Part shown: positions 3 through 41,521 of the stretch, piece by piece
Position numbering within the stretch: the first letter of the stretch is position 1
How the letters are laid out: each line of letters starts with the position of its first letter
The notes under the pieces: generated by a model
Told to the model about the DNA's origin: nothing
The model's input: the letters and a program-made list of their open reading frames with translations, nothing else
Databases searched by the model: none
Origin: an uncultured Candidatus Saccharibacteria bacterium
GTDB lineage: Bacteria; Patescibacteriota; Minisyncoccia; Phycocordibacterales; DATDWN01
Reading direction: 5' to 3'
NCBI GenBank assembly: GCA_964391455.1
Contig: CAYMJQ010000005.1
Coordinates: 1 to 44,968, forward strand
Length of the DNA: 44,968 nt
Program-made: the position numbers and the translations under genes

Positions 3-2465
3 AACAGAGCATTAGGTCTTTCTTCTAACTCAGACAATGTTCCAGGATTATTTATTTCTACTGCAGAAAACATCGGCCTCGGCACCACAACACCTAACAC
101 TCTAACCACAGCAACAATCGCATCTTCTACAGCACCTCAATTATCACTTAGTGCTGGGGCGGGAGTTTCTCAGTGGGCACTTAGAAATGCGGGAGGAAAC
201 TTCTACTTAGGAACTACTACGGTAGCTGGCACATCAACATCTACACTTTCAGCTTTATCAATTGATGGAGCTTCCGGAACAACAAGTGTTTGGGCTCTAA
301 ATGTTTTAGCTACTGGAGCAAATGCTACATCAACTATTAGTGGCAATCTTCAAGTTGTGGGTAATTTGAAAGTTGGACCTTCTTCTACTTATATAACAGA
401 AGATGGAATATTTAATACTAATGGTAGTAGTCCATTTACGATTAATAATTCAGTAGGAACACTTTCTGTTTCCAACACAGGTTTCGGTACCACAACTCTA
501 TCAGGTCTAAACATCTCAGGCTCTGCAACATCTACATCTAATGTAGGCTTCAACATCACCAATGGATGTTATGCTGTAAACGGAACATGTATAACAGGTG
601 GAGGATCCAGTGCTTCATCAACACTACTTGCTGATTCAAATACGTGGAGTGGAACTAACAACTTCACAAACAGATTGTCACTAAGTTCATCCACCCCAAC
701 AGCTCGTCTATCAGTTAACCCAGTAGCAGGAGACTCACTAGGATTCGTAGTTGGTTCATCTACAGCAACACAACTATCAGTATCATCACTTGGCTTCGGT
801 ACCACAACTCTATCAGGTCTAAACATCTCAGGTTCTGCAACATCTACATCTAATGTAGGCTTCAATATTACTGGAGGATGTTATGCCGTTAATGGTATTT
901 GTGTGGGAGGAGGTAGTGGCTCAGATCCATCTATTGGTGGAACATTAACATCTGCAACTCTAGGTTCAGTATTATTTGCGGGTTCAGGAACATTCCAACA
1001 AGACAATGCTAATTTCTTTTATGATGATACAAATAATAGATTAGGTCTTGGAACAACAACACCTTGGGCACAATTATCAATTAATCCTAATGGTATTACT
1101 GGACCAGCATTTGCTATTGGTTCATCAACAAGAACTTTGTTTAAGGTTGATAATGATGGAACAACAACTGTGGGTGATTCTTCTGGTACAGGAGACGCTA
1201 CATTCCAATTCGCATCTGATACTAACGCTTGGTCTATCGGATATAACTCTACAAACAAATCATTTAATATAGCTTCATCAACAAACTTTTCATCAAATGT
1301 TGCATTTACAATAACGAAAGGAACAACAAATAATGTTGGTATTGCTTCAACAACACCATGGAGAACACTCTCGGTTAATGGTACAGTTGCTTTTAACGGC
1401 TTGTCTGCTGTAACTGGAACAGATCAGTCGCTTTGTATAGACGGTACAACTCTTGAAGTTACCACACAGGCGGGAGATACTTGTGCGGTTTCTTCTGCAA
1501 GATTTAAAAACACAATAAATGGATTAGATGATAATAGTCTCGATATGTTTAAGACACTTAGACCTGTATCATTTATATACAATGGTGATACATCAAGTTC
1601 AACACACTGGGGCTTTATAGCAGAAGAGACAGCCTCAACTTCTCCACAACTTTCGTACTTTAATCCAGACGGAACAGTGCAAACAATAAATTCAAGTGCG
1701 ATATTGTCTTTGACAGTTAAGGCTGTTCAAGAAATGAATTTGAATCTTGAAACAATAGCTTCTACAACAGCTAGCACCACAGCATCTTCTATTTCATTTG
1801 CTGACAATTTCTGGTCAAATATATTTGGTCGTTTGATAGCATGGTTTGAAGACAGAGCAAATGGAATTCAAAGATTCTTTGCTAGAGAAGTTAATACAGA
1901 AAAAATCTGTGTATCAGATGAGTCAGGAGAGACTTGTTTAACAAAAGCGCAACTTGATTCACTTTTGGCAAATGTTGGTTTGGCATTAAATAACAACTCA
2001 AATCAAAACCAAACACCTCCACCACCACAATCAAATAATGGAACAGATAATACAAGTCCAGTAATAACAATAAACGGTGATAATCCTGCGGTTATAAATG
2101 TTGGGGATTCATATATAGATTTGGGTGCAAGTGTTACAGATACAGATGAAAATGGAGCTGTGAATAATAATTTAGGTATATATTATAATGTAAATGGTGT
2201 TGATGTTATAGACATAAGTATAGATACAAGTGTTCCGGGTACACACACTATAGTATATTCATCTACTGATGGAGCGGGCAATACAGGCACAGCCACAAGA
2301 GTAGTAGAAGTTGTAGATCCTAATCAGCAAACACAACCAATAGAAACAGAGCCAGAGCCAGAAGTTGTTGAAAATTCAGAACCGCAACCAGAACCAGCAC
2401 CAGAGGTGGAAACAGATACACAGTCACCAGATTTAGAAGAGGAAGTTATTGCAAACAATGAATAA
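3..2465 (+). CDS. Tail-fibre-like secreted repeat protein, 5' end outside the window, with an intramolecular-chaperone (peptidase S74-like) domain followed by an Ig-like domain and a Pro/Glu-rich acidic tail
   Basis: Frame 3 has no stop from base 3 to the listed ORF start at 357, so the gene enters from upstream. Repeated LG(L/F)GTTTP..L.V stalk motifs. The SSARFKNTI...THWGFIAEE block resembles the chaperone-of-endosialidase autoprocessing domain. SPVITINGDNPAVINVGDSYIDLGASVTD resembles DUF5011-type Ig domains. Internal ~76-bp repeat at 483-560 and 795-872. Confidence 0.7.
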   Translation, partial: NRALGLSSNSDNVPGLFISTAENIGLGTTTPNTLTTATIASSTAPQLSLSAGAGVSQWALRNAGGNFYLGTTTVAGTSTSTLSALSIDGASGTTSVWALNVLATGANATSTISGNLQVVGNLKVGPSSTYITEDGIFNTNGSSPFTINNSVGTLSVSNTGFGTTTLSGLNISGSATSTSNVGFNITNGCYAVNGTCITGGGSSASSTLLADSNTWSGTNNFTNRLSLSSSTPTARLSVNPVAGDSLGFVVGSSTATQLSVSSLGFGTTTLSGLNISGSATSTSNVGFNITGGCYAVNGICVGGGSGSDPSIGGTLTSATLGSVLFAGSGTFQQDNANFFYDDTNNRLGLGTTTPWAQLSINPNGITGPAFAIGSSTRTLFKVDNDGTTTVGDSSGTGDATFQFASDTNAWSIGYNSTNKSFNIASSTNFSSNVAFTITKGTTNNVGIASTTPWRTLSVNGTVAFNGLSAVTGTDQSLCIDGTTLEVTTQAGDTCAVSSARFKNTINGLDDNSLDMFKTLRPVSFIYNGDTSSSTHWGFIAEETASTSPQLSYFNPDGTVQTINSSAILSLTVKAVQEMNLNLETIASTTASTTASSISFADNFWSNIFGRLIAWFEDRANGIQRFFAREVNTEKICVSDESGETCLTKAQLDSLLANVGLALNNNSNQNQTPPPPQSNNGTDNTSPVITINGDNPAVINVGDSYIDLGASVTDTDENGAVNNNLGIYYNVNGVDVIDISIDTSVPGTHTIVYSSTDGAGNTGTATRVVEVVDPNQQTQPIETEPEPEVVENSEPQPEPAPEVETDTQSPDLEEEVIANNE

Positions 2466-4914
2466 TAAAATGATTAGAAAAATTTTTCATACATTTTTAA
2501 TATCAAACATAATCCTAATTAATTTTTTTGTTTACCCAAATCCTGCACAAGCGGCGGTGACAAATAACGGAATACTTTTTTATGGTGACACCGGTTTTGC
2601 TGGAACGTTAAGGGTTAGAACTTTTACTTCACCATCTACTTGGGGAACAGCTTTTAGTGCATTATCTTCTTCTGGAAGTAATATTTTATGGGTTGTTGCG
2701 AAGACTTCACCTACTAGAGATGAAAAAATTATAGGTCATCTTAAAGTTGATGGTAGACTGGATGTAGTGACTTGTACAACTGGATGTAATGCAAGCGGTG
2801 ATTTTACAGAACGATGGAATAATCCTGGAACAACAGCAACCCAAGATTGTGATAGTGCACCCACAGTTGATACTTGTATTAGAGCATTTGATATTGGTTA
2901 TGAAGCTTTGTCCGGTAGAGCTATGGTCGTTTACAGTGATGATACTAGCGACAGAGTATATTATGCATTATGGGATGGTTCTTCTTGGTCTCCAAATTCT
3001 ACACCAGGCACTCCAGGTGTGAGCAATGAGATAGATCTTCCAAACACTGCTGGAACTCCACAGTGGATAAGGGTTATACCAACAGGAGATAATTTAGCTG
3101 ATGAGAGATCAAATAGAATAATGGTTTTAGTTTCTGACACTAATGATGATTTATTTTCTTTTTATTGGGACGGAAATTCTTTTTCTTCTGGTGATATTTT
3201 AGAGACATCTCTTCAAAATTGTAGTATTGCCCAATGTTTTGATGGCAACTGGCAAAAAAATAACACTTTTATATTAAGTTACACCGATACTTCTGCAATG
3301 GATATTCAGTATGATAGATACGTTGTTGGTTCTGGTTGGGACGGACCCCAACAAGCATATACCATGGCTTCTAATGGTCAGTGGATTATGTCCACTGCAG
3401 ATCCTACTGGTACAAGGATTTTAGTAACCACGTCTTCTCAAGGTAATGATACCCGTAGTGCTGTTTGGAGGGGAGATAATGAGACGGATGGATGGACGGT
3501 CTGTTCTTCTACTGATTGTCCTGACACTACAACTGAAGTTGTAAGTGGTATGCAAGCTTCTACTGCTTTTGAAAGATTTAATGGTGAAGGACTTCATGTT
3601 TACAACGATGCTGGAACAACTTTAACCAATGATTATGTTACTTTTACACCATCTTCAACTTGGAGTAACACAGTTTCTTCAGGTATAACAATGTCAGATG
3701 ACGCTTTGAAAACTAGAGTTTGGGGCAGTACTAATAGTGACGATATAATGCTTATTGTTGAAGATGTCGATTGTGATTTATATGCTAGACTCTGGAACGG
3801 ATCTTCCCTCGAGACTGTAGCAACTGATATTGTCGCAAACACTTCTTCTTATGGAGTTGCTTGTCCTAATCTTACACAACCCGGTACAGACCCTGGAGGT
3901 GCTGCTTTTTCTTATGATTTTGCTTGGGATATTTATTCCCCTTGGACTAGAAACTGGAGGTTTTATGATGGTTCTGATACTTCAGCTACCCCAACAACTG
4001 CTTTAGCAAATGAAAACACAACACCAACGGGTTTTGATGGTGTTAATGGAAAAACAAGACTAAGATATTCTGTAATTGAGCTTACAAATAATAGACCACA
4101 AACTGATGCTAGAAAAAAGCTTCAGTGGACAACAGGTGATCCAGATAGTTTAACTGCTACGTGGACTGATGTTGATGATGTTGGCGGTGGTGGTATATGG
4201 AGGTATGTTGATTGTAATGGCTCTACGGGAACATGTAATGATAACACTACGCTTTCGGGAACAGTTTTATCAGGAAGCCCAACTGTTGGTTGGTGGACTC
4301 AAGATAAAGATGTTGATAATGGGGGATCTGGTATGGATCATTCAGCCGGTCAACTTTTGGAACTAGAATATTCTATTGAAGCAAATGGAGCATCATCAAA
4401 TACAACCTATTATTTTCGTATGTTTGATTTAGACCAACAAACACCTGTATTTAGAGAGCAAGATAATGATGGTTCAAATGATTGTGCGTCTTCTACTTGT
4501 ACTTATCCTAGTTTAACCACAGCATCTGTTTCTTCAAATCCCCCCACAACAAACACTAACTTCGCTGTACCAGGAGCTACAACAGCAACATTACATGGAA
4601 CAAAAACAGGTGGAGGAGATGCGACACAACATGGTTTTGCTTGGGGAACAAACTCAGGATTATCCGGGGGAGATACAGCAACAACAACACTAGGTTCGTT
4701 AAATAGTAACAGTGCTTTCATAAGTAATTTATCTGGTCTTAGTACTGGAACAACATATTATTTTAGAGCTTATGCTACAAATGCAGATGGAACTGGATAT
4801 GGAACCATCAAGAGTTTTGTTACAGGGAACACAAATGTAAGTAGATTCTTTTTACTTTTCGAAGGTTCACTTTTTAAGTTGTTGGAGGGTAGAATGATAA
4901 TCCATCAAAGATAG
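2449..4914 (+). CDS. Secreted 821-aa protein with an N-terminal signal/anchor, a Trp/Asp/Ser/Thr-rich repeat body and a C-terminal FN3-like module
   Basis: Long ORF. Hydrophobic N-terminus ending in PAQAAV. Alternative start ATG at 2458 overlaps the upstream stop. The last ~100 aa are identical to the C-terminus of 5885..8359. Confidence 0.65.
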   Translation: MQTMNNKMIRKIFHTFLISNIILINFFVYPNPAQAAVTNNGILFYGDTGFAGTLRVRTFTSPSTWGTAFSALSSSGSNILWVVAKTSPTRDEKIIGHLKVDGRLDVVTCTTGCNASGDFTERWNNPGTTATQDCDSAPTVDTCIRAFDIGYEALSGRAMVVYSDDTSDRVYYALWDGSSWSPNSTPGTPGVSNEIDLPNTAGTPQWIRVIPTGDNLADERSNRIMVLVSDTNDDLFSFYWDGNSFSSGDILETSLQNCSIAQCFDGNWQKNNTFILSYTDTSAMDIQYDRYVVGSGWDGPQQAYTMASNGQWIMSTADPTGTRILVTTSSQGNDTRSAVWRGDNETDGWTVCSSTDCPDTTTEVVSGMQASTAFERFNGEGLHVYNDAGTTLTNDYVTFTPSSTWSNTVSSGITMSDDALKTRVWGSTNSDDIMLIVEDVDCDLYARLWNGSSLETVATDIVANTSSYGVACPNLTQPGTDPGGAAFSYDFAWDIYSPWTRNWRFYDGSDTSATPTTALANENTTPTGFDGVNGKTRLRYSVIELTNNRPQTDARKKLQWTTGDPDSLTATWTDVDDVGGGGIWRYVDCNGSTGTCNDNTTLSGTVLSGSPTVGWWTQDKDVDNGGSGMDHSAGQLLELEYSIEANGASSNTTYYFRMFDLDQQTPVFREQDNDGSNDCASSTCTYPSLTTASVSSNPPTTNTNFAVPGATTATLHGTKTGGGDATQHGFAWGTNSGLSGGDTATTTLGSLNSNSAFISNLSGLSTGTTYYFRAYATNADGTGYGTIKSFVTGNTNVSRFFLLFEGSLFKLLEGRMIIHQR
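4540..4845 (+). repeat. 306-bp module, copy 1; by eye identical to 7985..8290
   Basis: Base-by-base comparison of the printed sequence found no differences. Encodes PPTTNTNFAVPGATT...TGNTNVSR. Confidence 0.9.
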
Positions 4915-5884: not shown

Positions 5885-8359
5885 ATGATAAAGGTCTTTA
5901 AAATAAAAAAATATAAATTTGTTGCTATAAAAATAATTATTATATTTATAATATCACCTATTTTGTCTATACTGCCTTTGAATGTTAAAGAAGTTCAGGC
6001 TCAAATTCCAGGTGAAAAGGTTATTTTTTTGACCACAACGGGCACCAACACATGGACGGTTCCAGATGATTGGTCAGACAATAATAAAATAGAAGTTATT
6101 GGAGGTGGGGGTGGGGGTAGAGCTGGATCAACTGCTGGTGCGAGAGGTGGTGGCGGTGGCTCTTATTCGGTTGCAACCGTAACAGGACTTTCTCCTGGTG
6201 GTTCTGTAACATATCGGGTTGGTGCTGGAGGTGCTGGAGGCACTACAGCCGGAACATCTGGAACTACTGGGGGAGATACATTTTTTAATAGAACAGCTGG
6301 TTCAGCAGATACTTGTGGAGATACTGTTTCAGTGTGTGCTAAAGGTGGTACCGGAGGGACATCTGCATCTGCTGGTGGCGTTGGTGGTGCTGTTGCTAGT
6401 AACAAACCAGCAAACGTTGGTTTTGCTGGTGGAAATGCAGGTTCTGGTAGTGGTACTGGTGATACTGGCGGTGGAGGTGGTGCTGCAGCAGGGCCTCATG
6501 GGGTAGGTAATTTGGCCGGTAATGGTCAAGGTGCTTCTCCGGGTGCTGGTGGTGGAGGTGGAGGAAGTGCAGGAAGCTCTGCTACAGCAGGAAGTGCCGG
6601 TTCAACTAATGGTGGTAACGGGGGTAATTCTTGGAGGGGTTCAGGAACTAATGGTACTGGTGCAAATGCAACAACTAATACTCCAGCTTCTTCTGGTACA
6701 AGTGGTGGTGGAGGTGGTGGCGGGGCTGCAACAACAACTACAACATCGCTTAGGGCAGGAGCAAATGGTAGTGATGGTTATGGAGTTTGGGTATCAACTC
6801 ATGCTGAAGATGGGGTAACTCCATCTGTGTCATCTATTGGCCCTGGTGGTGGTGGAGGTGGTGGCGGGGCTGCATCTGGAAACGGAACAGACTCTTCAGG
6901 TGGTGATGGTGGACTATATGGTGCTGGAGGTGGTGGGGCGTATCAAAATGCGGGTGATGGGGCTCAGGGAGTTATAGTAATTACTTATATACCAAGTAGT
7001 ATCGACAATATAAAGACAATTTTTTTGACCACAACAGGCACCAACACATGGACGGTTCCAGATGATTGGTCAGACGATAATGAAATCCATGTATTTGGTG
7101 CTGGTGGTGGAGGTAGAGCAGGATCGTCTTCAGGTGCAAAGGGTGGTGGAGGTGGAGCTTATGCTTCAAGTACTGTAACAGGACTTTCTCCTGGTGGTTC
7201 TGTAACATATCGGGTTGGTGCTGGAGGTGCTGGAGGCACTACAGCCGGAACATCTGGAACTACTGGGGGAGATACATTTTTTAATAGAACAGCTGGTTCA
7301 GCAGATACTTGTGGAGATACTGTTTCAGTGTGTGCTAAAGGTGGTACCGGAGGGACATCTGCAACGGCCGGTGGTGTTGGTGGTCAGATTGTAAATAACA
7401 AACCTGCATACGTAGGATATAATGGTGGTGCTGGAGGAAATGGTAATAACACTGGTGATACTGGTGGTGGAGGCGGTGGAGCAGCTGGGCCTTTTGGTTC
7501 TGGAAGAATAGGTGGTAATGGACAAGGTGCAGCTCCTGGTGCTGGGGGAGGCGGTGGAGGTGCGGGTGGGTTGGGTTCAGCCGGTTCAACTATTGGTGGA
7601 AATGGTGGAGTAAATTTTTCAGGATCTGGTTCTGGTACAGGTGCAAATCCAACAACCAATACTCCAGCTTCAATTGGTACTACAGGCGGTGGAGGTGGTG
7701 GCGGGGCTGCAACAACAACTACAACATCACTTAGGGCAGGGGCAAATGGTTCTAACAGTGAAATTTTTACATCAACTCATGCTGAAGACGGAGTAACTCC
7801 ATCCGTAGCATCCATTGGTCCTGGTGGAGGTGGTGGAGGTGGTGGGGCAACAACTGGTAATGGGACAGGTTCTTCAGGTGGTGATGGTGGTTATGGTGGT
7901 GGAGGTGGTGGAGCGTATCAAAATGCGGGTGATGGTGGAAATGGTTTTATCGTAATTAGATATGTTCCAGAATCTTCAGGTTCGCCCCCCACAACAAACA
8001 CTAACTTCGCTGTACCAGGAGCTACAACAGCAACATTACATGGAACAAAAACAGGTGGAGGAGATGCGACACAACATGGTTTTGCTTGGGGAACAAACTC
8101 AGGATTATCCGGGGGAGATACAGCAACAACAACACTAGGTTCGTTAAATAGTAACAGTGCTTTCATAAGTAATTTATCTGGTCTTAGTACTGGAACAACA
8201 TATTATTTTAGAGCTTATGCTACAAATGCAGATGGAACTGGATATGGAACCATCAAGAGTTTTGTTACAGGGAACACAAATGTAAGTAGAAGTTTGCGGA
8301 TTTTTGAAGGCGCTCGTTTGAATCTATTAAACGGTAAAATTATAATACACCAAAGATAA
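5885..8359 (+). CDS. Secreted glycine-rich repeat protein of 824 aa: two ~330-aa tandem units plus a C-terminal FN3-like module
   Basis: Signal peptide ending in VQAQ. Each unit starts with FLTTTGTNTWTVPDDWSD followed by GGGGG runs, as in glycine-rich domains of phage-fibre-like proteins. C-terminus shared with 2449..4914. Confidence 0.7.
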   Translation: MIKVFKIKKYKFVAIKIIIIFIISPILSILPLNVKEVQAQIPGEKVIFLTTTGTNTWTVPDDWSDNNKIEVIGGGGGGRAGSTAGARGGGGGSYSVATVTGLSPGGSVTYRVGAGGAGGTTAGTSGTTGGDTFFNRTAGSADTCGDTVSVCAKGGTGGTSASAGGVGGAVASNKPANVGFAGGNAGSGSGTGDTGGGGGAAAGPHGVGNLAGNGQGASPGAGGGGGGSAGSSATAGSAGSTNGGNGGNSWRGSGTNGTGANATTNTPASSGTSGGGGGGGAATTTTTSLRAGANGSDGYGVWVSTHAEDGVTPSVSSIGPGGGGGGGGAASGNGTDSSGGDGGLYGAGGGGAYQNAGDGAQGVIVITYIPSSIDNIKTIFLTTTGTNTWTVPDDWSDDNEIHVFGAGGGGRAGSSSGAKGGGGGAYASSTVTGLSPGGSVTYRVGAGGAGGTTAGTSGTTGGDTFFNRTAGSADTCGDTVSVCAKGGTGGTSATAGGVGGQIVNNKPAYVGYNGGAGGNGNNTGDTGGGGGGAAGPFGSGRIGGNGQGAAPGAGGGGGGAGGLGSAGSTIGGNGGVNFSGSGSGTGANPTTNTPASIGTTGGGGGGGAATTTTTSLRAGANGSNSEIFTSTHAEDGVTPSVASIGPGGGGGGGGATTGNGTGSSGGDGGYGGGGGGAYQNAGDGGNGFIVIRYVPESSGSPPTTNTNFAVPGATTATLHGTKTGGGDATQHGFAWGTNSGLSGGDTATTTLGSLNSNSAFISNLSGLSTGTTYYFRAYATNADGTGYGTIKSFVTGNTNVSRSLRIFEGARLNLLNGKIIIHQR
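6179..6367 (+). repeat. 189-bp exact core of the tandem duplication inside the Gly-rich gene, copy 1
   Basis: Identical to 7175..7363 (offset 996 bp). Flanks are related but diverged. Confidence 0.85.
7175..7363 (+). repeat. 189-bp exact core of the tandem duplication inside the Gly-rich gene, copy 2
   Basis: Identical to 6179..6367. Confidence 0.85.
7985..8290 (+). repeat. 306-bp module, copy 2; by eye identical to 4540..4845
   Basis: Same comparison as copy 1. Identity stops abruptly after GTAGA (codons ..VSR). Confidence 0.9.
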
Positions 8360-22885: not shown

Positions 22886-23060
22886 ATCAGATCTTTTTCC
22901 GAATCTCATCGTTTAAAATTCTCATATTCTCGTCACAGTACTATTGTACGCCTCCTCGTATGCTCAAATTTTATACGCGACCTTCGCAAAAAATCCTCTG
23001 AGCCCAAAATGACTGAGTCATTTTGTCAGGTTTTACAACTAGTGGAATCTTTTTATTTTA

Positions 23061-23210
23061 GAGACTGCGGAGACAATTAGTAATTAAGGACGAACGAAAA
23101 GAAGCCTGAAGCATTGTTTGAGGGTAGTCCCGAGTTTGCGGGAAGGCTCTGGAGTGAGGACATTAATTACTTGATTGTCGAGCGAGAGTAAAATTCTAGC
23201 AAGAATTTAT
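23061..23210 (+). repeat. Two-hairpin G+C-enriched intergenic element, enlarged copy E
   Basis: CTGCGGAG, then a long hairpin (arms 23072-23087 and 23163-23179), then GAGCGAGAG, then a second hairpin AAATTCT-AGCA-AGAATTT. Same layout as the copies at 33555, 37043 and 41061. Confidence 0.5.
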
Positions 23211-23223
23211 GCGTGCTCTAAAA

Positions 23224-23706
23224 TTAAAAGATGTAACGATTTATTGCAAAGTGAGTGAGACCAATGGCTATTGCATCCATCTCATCATCACTTTGGGTTT
23301 TTGAATCAATTTCAATAAGTTTTCTTGTCATATCCATCATTTGTTTTTTTTGTGCTCCACCATATCCTGTAATAGCAATTTTAATTTCATTTGGGCGATA
23401 TTCAAAAATCTGTAATCCTTTAGAAGTTCCTGTATATAAAATAACCCCTCGAGCTTCTGCAACCAACATTGCAGTTTTTTGATTACCAGAAAAAAATAGT
23501 TTTTCTGTGGCCATTTGTTCCGGCTTCCACTTTTTGATTACTTCTTTTATCCTGTCACCAATAAGAGTCAGGCGTTCATGATGGGGAAGTTTGCTAGAAG
23601 TTTTGAAACATTCAGAAAAAAGTAAAACTTCTTTTTCATTTTTGTTTTTTTCTAGTATTGCTATTCCCAGTCTTTCAAACCCTGGATCGATTGATATTAT
23701 TCTCAT
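23224..23706 (-). CDS. ruvC: Holliday junction resolvase RuvC
   Basis: MRIISIDPGFERLGIAILE start and a C-terminal DAIAIGLTH motif. Confidence 0.9.
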   Translation of the reverse strand: MRIISIDPGFERLGIAILEKNKNEKEVLLFSECFKTSSKLPHHERLTLIGDRIKEVIKKWKPEQMATEKLFFSGNQKTAMLVAEARGVILYTGTSKGLQIFEYRPNEIKIAITGYGGAQKKQMMDMTRKLIEIDSKTQSDDEMDAIAIGLTHFAINRYIF

Positions 23707-33170: not shown

Positions 33171-33390
33171 TATAATAATCTCCCGTTAGGTCACCTAGAT
33201 TATAAATTTTATACCACAGAGTCATGAATTCGATTCCTCTTGGGTTAAACTCAAAATCTATGTGTCCTGGGATAATTTCCTTGTCGTCACAAGGAAATTT
33301 CCTTCGGTCGACGACTTAGTCATGTCCCAAAAGTAATTTTCTGCTGAAAATTCTTTTGGGCCGACCTCAGCGCCGTCGCGCTTGCGGTTC

Positions 33391-33437
33391 GCACAAGTAC
33401 GAAAAAATCTGCATCCCAGCAGATTTGTTTCGTCTTG
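33391..33437 (-). terminator. Extended A-tract/hairpin/T-tract hairpin directly after the tRNA-Lys 3' end
   Basis: GCACAAGTACGAAAAAATCTGC-ATCCCA-GCAGATTTGTTTCGTCTTGTGC (plus-strand reading). Confidence 0.6.
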
Positions 33438-33510
33438 TGCGCCCGGCAGGAATCGAACCTGCGACCCTCTCCTTAAAAGGGAGCTGCTCTACCGACTGAG
33501 CTACGGGCGC
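33438..33510 (-). tRNA. tRNA-Lys (anticodon UUU), no encoded CCA
   Basis: Reverse complement GCGCCCG-TA-GCTC-AGTCGGTA-GAGC-A-GCTCC-CTTTTAA-GGAGA-GGGTC-GCAGG-TTCGATT-CCTGC-CGGGCGC-A folds as a cloverleaf. Confidence 0.9.
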
Positions 33511-33554
33511 ATGAGCCCAAAAACATAATTTGAATTATGTTTTTGTGGACTCAT

Positions 33555-33648
33555 GCGAGCCGCAGTCATGTTTTGTTAGCAAACAAAACAGACGAGGCGG
33601 GGTCGCGGAAATTTTGTTTTGGCGAAAACAAAATTATCCGTGACCATG
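33555..33648 (+). repeat. Two-hairpin G+C-enriched intergenic element, copy A
   Basis: GCGAGCCGCAG, hairpin TGTTTTGTT/AACAAAACA, GACGAGGCGGGG, long hairpin GGTCGCGGAAATTTTGTTTT-GGCG-AAAACAAAATTATCCGTGACC. Confidence 0.6.
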
Positions 33649-33699
33649 AGTCCTGACTTATAGTATTGAAATATACCAAAAAATCCTAAAAAGTCCAAT

Positions 33700-36880: not shown

Positions 36881-36967
36881 GGATGGGTGGCTGAGTGGTC
36901 TAAAGCAACAGTCTTGAAAACTGTCGTCTGGGCAACTGGACCGTGAGTTCGAATCTCACCCCATCCG
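36881..36967 (+). tRNA. tRNA-Ser (anticodon UGA) with a long variable arm, no encoded CCA
   Basis: GGATGGG acceptor pairs with CCCATCC. Anticodon arm ACAGT-CTTGAAA-ACTGT. T arm GTGAG-TTCGAAT-CTCAC. Confidence 0.9.
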
Positions 36968-37000
36968 CAAACGAAAACCGCGAAAGCGGTTTTTTGTTTG
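36968..37000. terminator. A-tract/hairpin/T-tract terminator after tRNA-Ser
   Basis: CAAACGAAAACCGC-GAAA-GCGGTTTTTTGTTTG. Confidence 0.75.
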
Positions 37001-37042
37001 GGTTGGGAGCAAAGTGTGGGACACTTTGCGTGTGGATTCGAA

Positions 37043-37134
37043 AGACGGAGCGGGGAACCCGTCGAGTACGACGGGTCGCGAGTCAGGGTTGTGCGGCTAA
37101 AATTGTGACGACAATTTTAGAACGCCTGACCGAA
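37043..37134 (+). repeat. Two-hairpin G+C-enriched intergenic element, copy D
   Basis: AGACGGAGC, hairpin CCCGTCG-AGTA-CGACGGG, GCGAGTCAGGG, hairpin CTAAAATTGT-GACG-ACAATTTTAG, then CTGACCGAA. Confidence 0.55.
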
Positions 37135-37149
37135 TCTCACCTCATCCGC
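37131..37149 (+). repeat. Degenerate copy of the tRNA-Ser 3' end (18/19 nt)
   Basis: CGAATCTCACCTCATCCGC versus CGAATCTCACCCCATCCGC at 36950-36968. Confidence 0.8.
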
Positions 37150-37359
37150 TAGTTGGAATTTTGCAAGCGAGAAGACATTGCTTTGCAGTGGCTGTGCCCC
37201 GCTCGGCTAGGATTAGAGGGGTTTTTAGCGAAAAAGAAAAGGATTTATCAATAAAAAATTTTTTTCATAAGGATTTTAGGGAAGAAACTCGTTGAGTTTT
37301 TTGTTTTTAATTTGATTTTTGATTCACAAAAGCATATTCTTGAGTACAGGAGGACCATC

Positions 37360-37791
37360 ATGAGTTTCCGCTTATGGACACTAGGTTTCGTATTGGTCTT
37401 TAGCCTGATCGCATGTTCTAGTGGTGACATTTCGTTGCCACAAGTTCAGATGGCAACCACACAGGAGCCACAAGACGTCTCTCTCGTGCAGTTGATCGCC
37501 AACCCGAATAAGTATCACAAAAGTCTGGTACGGGTCATCGGTTTCTGCCGTTTGGAATTTGAGGGTAATGCCCTCTACATCCATCGAGACGACTTCGAGT
37601 ATAGTATCAGCAAGAACGGTGTCTGGATCCAAGTTGGTTGGCCTATACCAGAGGATTTCCGAGAAATGAGTGACGAGTATGTGATCGTCGAAGCGATTTT
37701 TGACGCCGAACAGAAGGGACACTTCGGGATGTTCTCGGGATCACTTGAGGAAGTCAGGCGACTTGATCGCTGGGGATTACGAGCAAAGTGA
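37360..37791 (+). CDS. G+C-rich hypothetical lipoprotein (143 aa)
   Basis: The ATG lies 6 nt after AGGAGG (37348-37353). Signal peptide with lipobox LIAC. 33/60 G+C in line 37441-37500. Confidence 0.6.
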   Translation: MSFRLWTLGFVLVFSLIACSSGDISLPQVQMATTQEPQDVSLVQLIANPNKYHKSLVRVIGFCRLEFEGNALYIHRDDFEYSISKNGVWIQVGWPIPEDFREMSDEYVIVEAIFDAEQKGHFGMFSGSLEEVRRLDRWGLRAK

Positions 37792-37797
37792 GTGTTT

Positions 37798-37849
37798 GTC
37801 GACGAGTCGGGATCGAGAACACTTAGTAACTCGTGACCGAATCTGTCAC
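37798..37849 (+). repeat. Partial copy C of the two-hairpin element, ending in a T-arm-like hairpin
   Basis: GTCGACGAGTCGGG..CTCGTGACC. GTGAC-CGAATCT-GTCAC (37833-37849) mimics the tRNA-Ser T arm GTGAG-TTCGAAT-CTCAC. Confidence 0.5.
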
Positions 37850-37926
37850 AGATAATTTTTTGCTAAAAATTTCTGCAACCCCACCTCGGCTTGTCAGCCT
37901 CCGGTCTTGCGATTGGGTTCAGTCCC

Positions 37927-37943
37927 AATCTCACCCCATCCGC
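37927..37943 (+). repeat. Exact 17-nt copy of the tRNA-Ser 3' end (att-like direct repeat)
   Basis: AATCTCACCCCATCCGC is identical to 36952-36968. Confidence 0.85.
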
Positions 37944-40938: not shown

Positions 40939-41010
40939 GCTCTTGTAGTTTAATGGATAGAATGCTGGCCTGCGAAGCTGGCGATCCCAGTTCGATTCTG
41001 GGCGAGAGCA
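40939..41010 (+). tRNA. tRNA-Arg (anticodon GCG), no encoded CCA
   Basis: GCTCTTG-TA-GTTT-AATGGATA-GAAT-G-CTGGC-CTGCGAA-GCTGG-CGAT-CCCAG-TTCGATT-CTGGG-CGAGAGC-A. The D and anticodon stems contain G-U pairs. Confidence 0.8.
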
Positions 41011-41058
41011 CAAGTGTACTAAAAAACCCCAACTGCTTGGGATTTTTTAGTACACTTG
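41011..41058. terminator. Extended terminator hairpin after tRNA-Arg
   Basis: CAAGTGTACTAAAAAACCCCA-ACTGC-TTGGGATTTTTTAGTACACTTG. Confidence 0.7.
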
Positions 41059-41060
41059 TG

Positions 41061-41150
41061 AGACGGAGCTATGTTTTTGTACCAACAAAAACAAGCGAGT
41101 CGGGGTCGCAAAAATTTATGAGCGACGGCGAATAAATTATTTGTGACCAA
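41061..41150 (+). repeat. Two-hairpin G+C-enriched intergenic element, copy B
   Basis: AGACGGAGC, hairpin TGTTTTTGT-ACCA-ACAAAAACA, GCGAGTCGGGG, hairpin GGTCGCAAAAATTTAT..ATAAATTATTTGTGACC. Confidence 0.6.
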
Positions 41151-41154
41151 GTTA

Positions 41155-41178
41155 AACCCCAACTGCTTGGGATTTTTT
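41155..41178. repeat. Second copy of the 24-bp terminator core AACCCCAACTGCTTGGGATTTTTT, which also serves as the rpsT terminator
   Basis: Identical to 41025-41048. The two copies flank element copy B. Confidence 0.85.
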
Positions 41179-41179
41179 C

Positions 41180-41443
41180 TTATTTTATTTTTTTAATCAT
41201 CGCCACTAGTCTTGATTTTTTTCTAGAAGCATTATTTAACTTCAAAAGTCCTGTTTTTACTGATTTATCTAGTATCTTTTGAACATTTTTCATTTGTTCA
41301 GCTACTACTTTAACATCCTTTTTTTGAATAAGAGATTTTAGATTTTTTATAGCTTTGTTTACAGCGTCTTTTTTCCTTTTGTTAAACAACCTCTTTTTCC
41401 CAGAGTTTCTTAAGGCTTTTTTAGCTGATCTTGTTATTGGCAT
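41180..41443 (-). CDS. rpsT: 30S ribosomal protein S20
   Basis: MPITRSAKKALRNSGKKRLFNKRKK. Start moved to the internal Met at 41443. Confidence 0.9.
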   Translation of the reverse strand: MPITRSAKKALRNSGKKRLFNKRKKDAVNKAIKNLKSLIQKKDVKVVAEQMKNVQKILDKSVKTGLLKLNNASRKKSRLVAMIKKIK

Positions 41444-41521
41444 AGACCAGATACTATAATAAATCGATAAATAAATCAATACTCTAGGAGTAATATCTTA
41501 AATGATGTATTATTTAGAAAT

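Follow-up and report, generated by a model that had tools for sequence, protein, structure and literature searches.

In Escherichia coli, the tRNA-linked repeats (TLRs), among them those of the tyrT operon from which RtT RNA (RF00391) comes, lie directly downstream of a tRNA, end in a copy of the tRNA 3' end and are co-transcribed. Integron attC sites and the attachment site (attP) of phage CTX are recognised as folded single strands, with stems that vary and bulges and mismatches that are conserved; the inverted arms of CTX lie about 90 nt apart. Here we describe a repeated element with likenesses to both, located in the window (throughout this text, the whole 44,968-nt stretch of contig CAYMJQ010000005.1, assembly GCA_964391455.1, from an uncultured Candidatus Saccharibacteria bacterium). 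A preliminary description, made from the letters of the window, had reported two-hairpin intergenic elements there, with copies called A, B, D and E and a partial copy C. The finding is real and is larger than first reported: the element is uncatalogued, strongly covarying and tied to the ends of tRNAs and other genes.

Like the TLRs, many of its copies are repeats at the 3' side of tRNAs that end in a copy of the tRNA end, but the element has no RF00391 match at E<=10 and also stands at the ends of protein genes and the 5' ends of opposite-strand tRNAs. Its inverted arm and conserved three-way junction are further differences. With attC and CTX attP it shares strand-specific conserved bulges, variable stems and paired inverted arms; it lacks the R'/R'' core sites (GTTRRRY), IntI and dif-like arms, and its paired arms copy the local target instead of a fixed site. 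The repetitive extragenic palindromic sequences and bacterial interspersed mosaic elements (REP/BIME, also REPIN) of Proteobacteria are likewise short, non-coding, multi-copy hairpins that are intergenic, often at gene 3' ends, with a structure on one strand and covarying stems. REPs, however, are single hairpins of 20-40 nt with a 5' GTAG, conserved in sequence within a species and dependent on the REP-associated tyrosine transposase (RAYT), whereas the element is a 90-nt three-way junction plus a palindrome, conserved in structure across a class and accompanied by target duplication.

Integrative elements that target tRNAs, and the derivatives of these that have no integrase (CIMEs), resemble the element in duplicating the 3' 17-20 nt of a tRNA or gene end, in tandem accretion and in variable occupancy. 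By contrast, the inserts here are gene-free and 130-300 bp long, there is one recombinase per genome, and the duplications are unrelated and variable in length. Rickettsia palindromic elements (RPEs) are also protein-less palindromes, found in reduced genomes, whose fold is conserved and whose way of moving is not known; they differ in being inserted in frame into genes and in having no tie to tRNA ends. G+C-rich hairpin elements also occur in A+T-rich organelles, among them the GC clusters of yeast mitochondria (PMC4478555) and the repetitive hairpin-forming elements of sponges (PMC2800124). These organelle elements, fungal double-hairpin elements included, are similarly G+C-enriched, intergenic, often beside tRNAs and evidently mobile with no known enzyme. 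The present element is set apart from them by its bacterial host, longer branched fold, class-wide invariant unpaired nucleotides, target-complementary arm and long duplications.

Fold and covariation of the element

A complete unit of about 135 nt consists of an upstream palindrome, H0, and a conserved non-coding core of about 90 nt. The core folds as a three-way junction with an outer closing stem (P1), which is specific to each copy, and two arms (P2 and P3). A short 'NGA' forms the junction before P2 and 'GG' lies between P2 and P3. P2 consists of 3 bp, an internal loop GNA/GA and a further 3 bp, capped by a variable 9-bp hairpin with the loop A[GC][CT]A. P3 has the form GGTCGNNN...NNN(C/G)TGACC, with a G·U wobble, a bulged A and the loop G[AG]CG. 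Both H0 and the outer closing stem are absent from the preliminary description. The complete copies in the window and the features that adjoin them are as follows; scores are those of the covariance model R1 (90 positions, 35 pairs), with which the window was scored with filters off and up to E<=10.

33437-33510, minus strand: tRNA-Lys(UUU) (Rfam tRNA 72.8 bits, anticodon loop CUUUUAA), its 5' end abutting H0 of copy A
33511-33555, plus strand: H0 of copy A, a near-perfect palindrome, ATGAGCCCAAAAACATAATT-TGA-ATTATGTTTTTGTGGACTCAT
33556-33645, plus strand: core of copy A (107.1 bits, E=1e-25)
33645-33654, plus strand: 3' strand of P1 of copy A (CATGAGTCC), a direct repeat of CATGAGCCC at 33510-33518
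33670-33697, minus strand: promoter-like site for tRNA-Lys just past copy A (by eye TTGGAC-17-TATATT; by scan TGGACT-16-TATATT)
36881-36968, plus strand: tRNA-Ser(UGA), with its terminator downstream at 36973-36994
37030-37040, plus strand: arm X' of copy D (GTGTGGATTCG), which repeats the 3' strand of the tRNA-Ser T-loop/T-stem in inverted form and supplies the 5' strand of P1
37041-37131, plus strand: core of copy D, with a G+C-rich P2 subtype (54.7 bits, E=3e-12)
37131-37149, plus strand: direct copy of the tRNA-Ser 3' end (CGAATCTCACCTCATCCGC), equal to the 3' strand of P1 of D
40939-41011, plus strand: tRNA-Arg(GCG) (ARAGORN, Rfam)
41010-41059, plus strand: H0 of copy B, a terminator-type palindrome, ACAAGTGTACTAAAAAACCCCAA-CTGC-TTGGGATTTTTTAGTACACTTGT, beginning at the last base of tRNA-Arg
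41059-41148, plus strand: core of copy B (103.2 bits, E=1e-24)
41148-41178, plus strand: second CAAGT and terminator core (AAACCCCAACTGCTTGGGATTTTTT), the target duplication flanking B

A, B and D are thus one family with one layout, close to where they had first been placed, and the stems quoted for them, with the swap of GG:CC for AA:TT at the base of hairpin 2, are present in the sequence. In copy A, the junction 'CGA' leads to a P2 of GCC/GGC, the loop GCA/GA, GTC/GAC and the 9-bp hairpin with loop AGCA; after 'GG' comes P3, GGTCGCGGA...TCCGTGACC, which contains a G·T wobble and the bulged A and is capped by the loop GGCG. The last 9 nt of its H0 (33547-33555) can alternatively pair with 33646-33654, and this pairing is P1. 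The minimum free energy of copy A is -54.7 kcal/mol, and folding compared with shuffles gives z=-8.3 for A (33545-33660), -5.7 for B and -3.6 for D. The G+C enrichment first noted is also present (0.42-0.56 in the copies, 0.33 in the genome). H0 accompanies all 48 copies surveyed for it, with a median of 13 paired positions, and its loop is CTGC in 17 of the 48. We considered kissing of this loop (CUGC) with the P2 loop AGCA and rejected it: the two show no covariation, and copies with ACCA still have CTGC.

R1 was built on a seed of four copies of equal length, as a MAFFT alignment of the first eight copies had put the hairpins out of register; further copies were first located on five other contigs by a hand-written descriptor of the P2 motif. 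When 53 distinct copies were aligned to R1 (1712 pair cells), standard pairs filled 93.9% of cells, compared with 68.6% in shuffled alignments and 39-52% with the partner slid. Fitting the alignment to R1 favours pairing, but the slid controls and an independent set of ten orthologues lead to the same result. Double changes occur in 33 of the 35 pairs. The covariation score is 0.58, compared with 0.17 when shuffled (none of 500 shuffles reached 0.58) and at most 0.11 when slid. Outside the helices, A3, G7, A9, G73, A74, G81, the bulged A125 (52/53 copies) and the loop letters are nearly invariant. One pair of P3 is G·U in 42/53 copies, and the tip of P3 carries tandem G·A/A·G in 15.

The ten orthologues, all copies facing the tRNA-Lys 5' end, differ in their stems and keep the pairing. 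Among them P2b reads GTC/GAC, GCC/GGC, GAC/GTC or AAC/GTT, and in the hairpin TGT..ACA is replaced by TAT..ATA. The flanking spacer and H0 arms diverge freely, but all ten retain GNA/GA, the bulged A and the G·T. The structure of the element is under selection, as the preliminary description had proposed from covarying stems. It took linkers 1 and 2 to be unpaired, and here the outcome was different: the linkers are helical because they pair with each other in P2 (GNC/GNC and GNN/NNC, both covarying), around the GNA/GA loop.

The kink-turn consists of a C-stem, a 3-nt bulge and tandem sheared G·A/A·G pairs that open the NC stem. An L7Ae-type kink-turn in P2 would need column 12 to pair with 72, and was rejected: the register that covaries has the Watson-Crick pairs 10-72, 11-71 and 12-70 (99.3% paired, with double changes in all three) and leaves a 3x2 loop, GNA/GA.

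One strand carries these features. With the conserved wobble excluded, G·U cells number 33 and A·C cells 7, and one strand is therefore the folded, selected strand. The reverse strand also scores low, at 26 bits compared with 107.

The copies could in principle be functionless by-products of hairpin-driven template switching that perfects palindromes, or elaborate terminators, an account that we disfavour as very improbable. Palindromes of this kind do occur: the rpsI terminator palindrome at C1:75390-75610 (C1 being another contig of this genome) reaches into coding sequence, with ATTGTGGAG after the terminator complementing the rpsI codons CTCCACAAT, so inverted gene-end copies arise beside terminators in this genome; the H0 arms, too, change between species and stay near-perfect. 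Yet the bulged A (52/53), the G·U and the GNA/GA asymmetry persist across the class instead of being erased, as palindrome-perfecting would erase them, and something therefore reads them. The same 90-nt architecture also recurs at unrelated loci. As to intrinsic terminators, P2 and P3 have no T-run, and a terminator form is found only in the H0 of same-strand copies; the first judgement that these are not ordinary terminators stands.

Spread and placement at tRNA and gene ends

The genome that holds the window has 641 kb in 23 contigs at 33% G+C, the window being contig C5. R1 matches it 21 times at E<=1 and 15 times at E<=1e-5. The order carries the element in 36 of 41 genomes and 12 of 17 genera, with 1-22 copies each, and across the class Paceibacteria a match at E<=1e-5 is found in 56 of 201 genomes and 44 of 159 genera. 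In a sample of the phylum (301 genomes), only three genomes outside the class gave matches, all weak. Copy number ranges from 1 to 22 within the genus of this genome. Of the genomes of the order, G008 has 22 copies, G002 18, G016 and G007 15 each, G012 9 and G034 none. Arrays and shortened remnants occur, including a three-copy array on contig C7.

In Rfam 15, only tRNAs reached the gathering score in the window, and a search of 22900-44968 at E<=10 gave no credible match overlapping the cores. The families covered include riboswitches, ribozymes (hammerhead, twister, pistol, hatchet and hepatitis delta virus-like), group II intron domains, RtT (RF00391), Y-RNA-like and skipping-rope RNAs, which agrees with the earlier view that no known riboswitch or ribozyme class is involved. 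Full-text literature searches found no published description of the family. The outcomes named beforehand as telling against the family all failed to appear: covariation held with more copies, further copies exist in the genome and its relatives, and Rfam gives no match.

Position was surveyed in 59 copies from about 45 genomes. The core typically lies 44-48 nt from a tRNA end (27/59 copies at 42-48 nt), and H0 fills the gap. In configuration (i), which accounts for 33/59 copies, the element is downstream of the 3' end of a same-strand tRNA, and H0 takes the form of a terminator (A-run, stem, T-run) starting at the base after the tRNA. In configuration (ii), 13/59 copies face the 5' end of an opposite-strand tRNA, mainly tRNA-Lys(UUU), tRNA-Ala and tRNA-Ile. 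In both, the H0 side touches the tRNA and the element is always directed away from it. Other neighbours are terminators and protein-gene ends such as that of rpsI; like the tRNA ends they form stems, with H0 at the outer foot and the unit directed away from the gene. The tRNA adjacency reported for the window copies is real. Of the 15 matches in this genome at E<=1e-5, 10 are no more than 155 nt away from a tRNA gene, although the 32 tRNA genes together with such margins make up only about 2% of the genome. Those farther off are the three-copy C7 array and the copy after rpsI. Copies stand on both sides of tRNA-Lys in the window and of tRNA-Ile on C7.

In configuration (ii) a conserved tRNA promoter, TTGGAC-17-TATATT, sits just beyond the element, so the tRNA leader holds the element in antisense. 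At copy A, the promoter-like site just beyond it likewise means that the tRNA-Lys leader carries the antisense of A, and its hexamers are kept at the same position in 8 related genomes. To judge from this layout, the folded strand is probably not transcribed at configuration (ii) loci. No convincing internal promoter was found in H0 or P3 by promoter scan and inspection.

These positions bear on a different account, in which the element is a tRNA-linked family of structured small RNAs. Transcription of the tRNA would run on through the leaky H0 terminator into the core, which would be released by RNase Z or P together with RNase III acting on the H0 duplex and would act as RNA, perhaps binding a protein or a tRNA-related enzyme; the layout that duplicates tRNA ends would reflect gene multiplication, as with the E. 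coli RtT RNA repeats. The conserved features are indeed RNA-like (G·U, GNA/GA, tandem G·A, bulged A, fixed tetraloop letters), the same unpaired letters recur across the whole class, and compensatory evolution in place at tRNA-Lys favours such an RNA. H0 starts exactly after the tRNA, so that RNase Z cleavage would set the RNA 5' end, many copies are followed by a second terminator, and a few stand 12-38 nt upstream of a same-strand tRNA (L035, L037, L015). Set against this, the 13/59 copies that face an opposite-strand tRNA 5' end would be transcribed there in antisense, yet keep the sense-strand features, and same-strand copies lie behind a canonical terminator with no space for a promoter of their own. 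We regard a small RNA as possible, if doubtful.

The remaining copies, remnants and related features of the window are listed below.

23041-23225, plus strand: E repeat, of another family (no R1 match), with a long A/T-rich stem and a G+C-rich branched head
33270-33302, minus strand: P3-only remnant (GGAAATTTCCTTGTGACGACAAGGAAATTATCC; 28.4 bits, model positions 52-84)
33325-33391, minus strand: small copy of about 65 nt, pointing away from tRNA-Lys (30 bits, E=7.8e-6, filters off)
33405-33426, minus strand: terminator of tRNA-Lys (terminator scan), upstream of the small copy
37798-37849, plus strand: fragment C, degenerate (10.1 bits, E=1.1; z=-0.86)
37844-37908, minus strand: small copy, tail to tail with fragment C (38 bits, E=7e-8)

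The family had been described as lying wholly on the plus strand; the two minus-strand small copies, which the preliminary description did not contain, and the minus-strand remnant correct this. The small copies belong to a shorter variant of about 65 nt in this genome, in which P2 is reduced to a 4-bp G+C hairpin. Fragment C, reported as a partial copy, is at most a degenerate, shortened remnant. E does not belong to the family. With filters off it has no R1 match at E<=10, and it has one paralogue, C7:2720-2880, with 82% identity over 164 nt (BLAST), so we regard it as a separate two-copy repeat. It lies in the lepA-ruvC spacer, and its base shares the GGA/GA loop motif with the main family. 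The two copies that flank tRNA-Lys are of different subtypes and not complementary, and a processing stalk formed between them was accordingly rejected.

Three complete tRNAs are found in the window by ARAGORN, and its genes are housekeeping genes (lepA, ruvABC, pilB, tsaE, polA, fpg, ruvX, rpsT). The tRNA beside copy A had been taken for tRNA-Lys, and the Rfam alignment, with its anticodon loop CUUUUAA and a G27·A43 mismatch, bears this out; the ARAGORN label 'tRNA-Stop, anticodon tta' is a mis-call. There is no sign of stop-codon recoding in the window, where open reading frames (ORFs) are long under table 11.

Several side observations concern the element or its neighbourhood. A variant at C1:42436-42526, C4:46735-46825 and C15:9614-9654 keeps P2 and a GACG-looped hairpin, has the P3 base GGTGCCCAGA...TTCGAGGGAGAAACTCCCAC and continues into a tail that resembles a tRNA 3' end. 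Small hairpins tipped with GCGAAGC, a sequence known for the unusual stability of the d(GCGAAGC) DNA mini-hairpin, recur beside elements (for example at C1:42410, C4:46850, C7:5350 and loci L040 and L044). A small-variant copy at a contig end (C15:1-51) is nearly identical to C7:20508-20572, and the repeats appear to break the assembly. Two tRNAs of this genome, called by ARAGORN only, have unusual anticodons: tRNA-Ser(ACU) at C4:47024-47111 and tRNA-Ile(UAU) at C7:20281-20355. Elsewhere in the window, a G+C-rich, strongly G-skewed stretch at 5885-8359 on the plus strand (GC 0.50, skew 0.36) encodes an 824-aa glycine-rich repeat protein, which shares its C-terminal ~110 residues almost unchanged with the neighbouring 821-aa protein (2449-4914).

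Target duplications and the search for an enzyme

Many copies are bordered by duplications of whatever they adjoin, and these range from 5 to 47 nt. Copy B is bracketed by two copies of CAAGT plus AAACCCCAACTGCTTGGGATTTTTT, and the duplicated terminator beside it also terminates the convergent rpsT, which lies on the minus strand at 41180-41479. The copy after rpsI (C1:75457) sits between two 47-nt copies of the last rpsI codons, stop included, and the terminator. D is flanked by CGAATCTCACC[C/T]CATCCGC, with another copy of the tRNA-Ser end at about 37926-37943. Direct repeats of 17-20 nt from tRNA 3' ends occur at D, L044, L046, L050 and L058. In 44 copies, the 25 nt that follow the core were compared with the 150 nt that precede it. 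The longest direct repeat shared by the two has a mean length of 9.1 nt, compared with 5.8±0.2 for permuted partners, and reaches 10 nt or more in 14/44. In D and many relatives the core comes after an inverted copy of the target, X', which pairs with the displaced target copy to form P1. P1 averages 5.1 contiguous pairs in the same 44 copies (3.4±0.2 with permuted partners).

Occupancy is variable. At tRNA-Arg-rpsT-ruvA, among the relatives compared, only the window and L063 have the element; in the others the site is empty and the tRNA abuts an ORF, or there is a different insert bounded by an exact 20-nt repeat of the tRNA end. The tRNA-Arg(GCG) near rpsT/ruvA itself lies on the minus strand in 8 and on the plus strand in 8 of the loci L051-L070; the 3' insert, where present, travels with it, and the unit of tRNA and insert has therefore been inverted repeatedly. 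The end of rpsI in the genus is an empty site, carries this core (G000, L127, L128, L142) or carries other cores with the same architecture, which runs from the gene end through a terminator, a perfect inverted copy of the last 17-20 nt and the core to a displaced gene-end copy. In L128, L133, L135-L139, L143 and L146, rpsI is followed by a second conserved core (AGAAAGGGGTCGGGAAAACTGGGTGTTTTCCCGTGGAGGAAGGATTGGGAAAACCGTGGGTTTCCCAG), which stands between a perfect inverted copy of the last 17-20 nt and a displaced copy of the end that is still codon-like. Most differences between displaced rpsI ends and the live end are synonymous (APKWSKR* and APNWSKR* are an example of such a pair), a pattern which suggests that they diverged while both were coding and hence that ends were exchanged between lineages. 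At L068 only 16 nt are left of the tRNA-Lys copy. The source-study contigs all have the same arrangement and show no strain polymorphism. Such variable occupancy, with copies lost without replacement, also speaks against the small-RNA account.

Repeated gene ends are what a recombinase acting at attachment (att) sites would leave, and the preliminary description suggested descent from tRNA-end att sites. On such an account tRNA-targeting integrative elements would have given rise to the copies, either as remnants that have no integrase or as cis-mobilisable miniatures, with the core next to attP and the duplications as attL and attR. The attP would be a folded strand (X' paired with X), as in phage CTX, and would be recombined by a single host Xer-type recombinase. 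Part of the suggestion stood: target-gene 3' ends are repeated at both borders of D, L044, L046, L050, L058 and the rpsI copy. Further points in favour are the 17-20-nt length of the tRNA repeats, tandem accretion at L040 and at 36968-37943 of the window, a distance of about 90 nt between the inverted arms X' and X, and displaced rpsI ends that differ mainly synonymously, as would follow if an incoming element brought its own gene end.

The recombinase part fared worse. Almost every one of the 41 order genomes has exactly one tyrosine recombinase (PF00589), Xer-like and about 310 aa long, whether the element is present or not, and classical integrase-made att sites are therefore unlikely. No cognate integrase in cis or trans was found beyond this protein. 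The ORFs that recur within 1.5 kb of copies are only the housekeeping neighbours of tRNA-Lys, with no integrase and no mobile-element ORF among them. The duplicated sequences (tRNAs, rpsI, arbitrary terminators) are mutually unrelated and 5-47 nt long, a poor fit to one sequence-specific recombinase, and no copy was found on viral contigs, where 24 pattern matches in IMG/VR are at chance level and none passes R1. We therefore consider descent from att sites quite unlikely. With one tyrosine recombinase in nearly all of the 41 genomes, it is a single-recombinase Xer system that would be used. The likeness of the 9-nt GGGTCGCNG to tRNA-Lys, noted in the preliminary description, might be a trace of such descent.

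Other enzymes give no better candidate. Reverse transcriptase (PF00078) is absent from this genome (18-21 copies), G002 (18), G008 (22) and G016 (15). The Y1 transposase (PF01797) is present in 21 of the 41 genomes without relation to copy number, with none in G008 (22), G007 (15) or G012 (9), and four matches in G034, which has no copy of the element. We accordingly rejected REP/BIME repeats with a RAYT and elements derived from IS200/IS605. Repeats mobilised by a retroelement (a group II intron fragment, a retron, a diversity-generating retroelement template or one resembling a short interspersed nuclear element) were rejected since several high-copy carriers have no reverse transcriptase. 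Domain V/VI of a group II intron, which the GAGCCG start and the bulged A near the 3' end recall, does not fit in helix lengths, has no Rfam match and meets the same carriers without reverse transcriptase. Integron attC was rejected as well: the consensus has no R''/R' boxes (RYYYAAC / GTTRRRY), and there is no second tyrosine recombinase. The element is also not a miniature inverted-repeat transposable element (MITE), as the core ends (CGAGCC... / ...GTGACC) do not form inverted repeats, each copy has an outer stem of its own, duplications span 5-47 nt and no ORF recurs within 1.5 kb.

How copies may be read and spread

We favour reading the copies as a class-wide, undescribed, protein-less repeat or insertion element that is defined by its structure and read as a single strand, and would call this an even bet. 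The specific route proposed below, a template switch on single-stranded DNA, is a tentative suggestion that we rate as clearly less probable. The element would be read as a folded single strand, most likely as DNA exposed as the lagging-strand template and possibly also as RNA; a single-stranded-DNA reader is favoured because the folded strand appears non-transcribed at the loci that face tRNA-Lys. All ten full-length copies of this genome are on the G-rich strand, which has the leading-strand sequence, that of the lagging-strand template. The invariant junction nucleotides may be the handle for a host factor. New copies could arise by copy-and-paste at the 3' foot of a hairpin, re-copying the target, and the event may be a template switch or a staggered repair where a fork has stalled. 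Recombination anchored in the highly conserved neighbouring gene may afterwards carry copies from one lineage to another.

Several points weigh against an insertion element of this kind. No insertion event was caught and no mobilising activity identified. The conserved G·U, the sheared-type GNA/GA, the tandem G·A and the bulged A resemble functional RNA, and in-place purifying selection at tRNA-Lys is unexpected for a purely selfish, decaying insert. Within one genome the stems are wholly different between copies, unlike those of recently amplified MITEs. Gene orientation and shared ancestry confound the strand bias, which draws on few independent loci. As for transcripts, the window sequence is present in DNA runs only, and the RNA runs from the study of a relative contain none of its words, nor the relative's copy. 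The insertion-element and small-RNA readings are not exclusive.

A more specific proposal, which we offer as speculative and unlikely, is that the core is the recognition handle of a self-retargeting, protein-less mobile nucleic acid. A host enzyme would recognise the invariant three-way junction in one strand of DNA or RNA, X' would be templated from, or selected to pair with, a conserved gene end, and insertion would re-copy that end. If true, such a family could colonise the feet of many genes across the class without a transposase, integrase or reverse transcriptase of its own.

In practice, these elements appear to break assemblies and create false 'tRNA fragments' and 'att sites' in annotation. 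Genomes of the Paceibacteria (Parcubacteria) measure 0.5-1 Mb and have little spare DNA, yet up to 22 copies of a 90-135-nt element are kept. Should the element act as RNA, a major uncultured lineage would have a new and widespread class of tRNA-linked RNA. If mobile, it moves without a recognisable enzyme of its own and targets the most conserved gene ends. It would then bear on rearrangement in reduced genomes, such as the flips of tRNA-Arg, on the replacement of gene ends, and on the long-open matter of how protein-less hairpin repeats (REP-like sequences, RPEs, mitochondrial GC clusters) spread.

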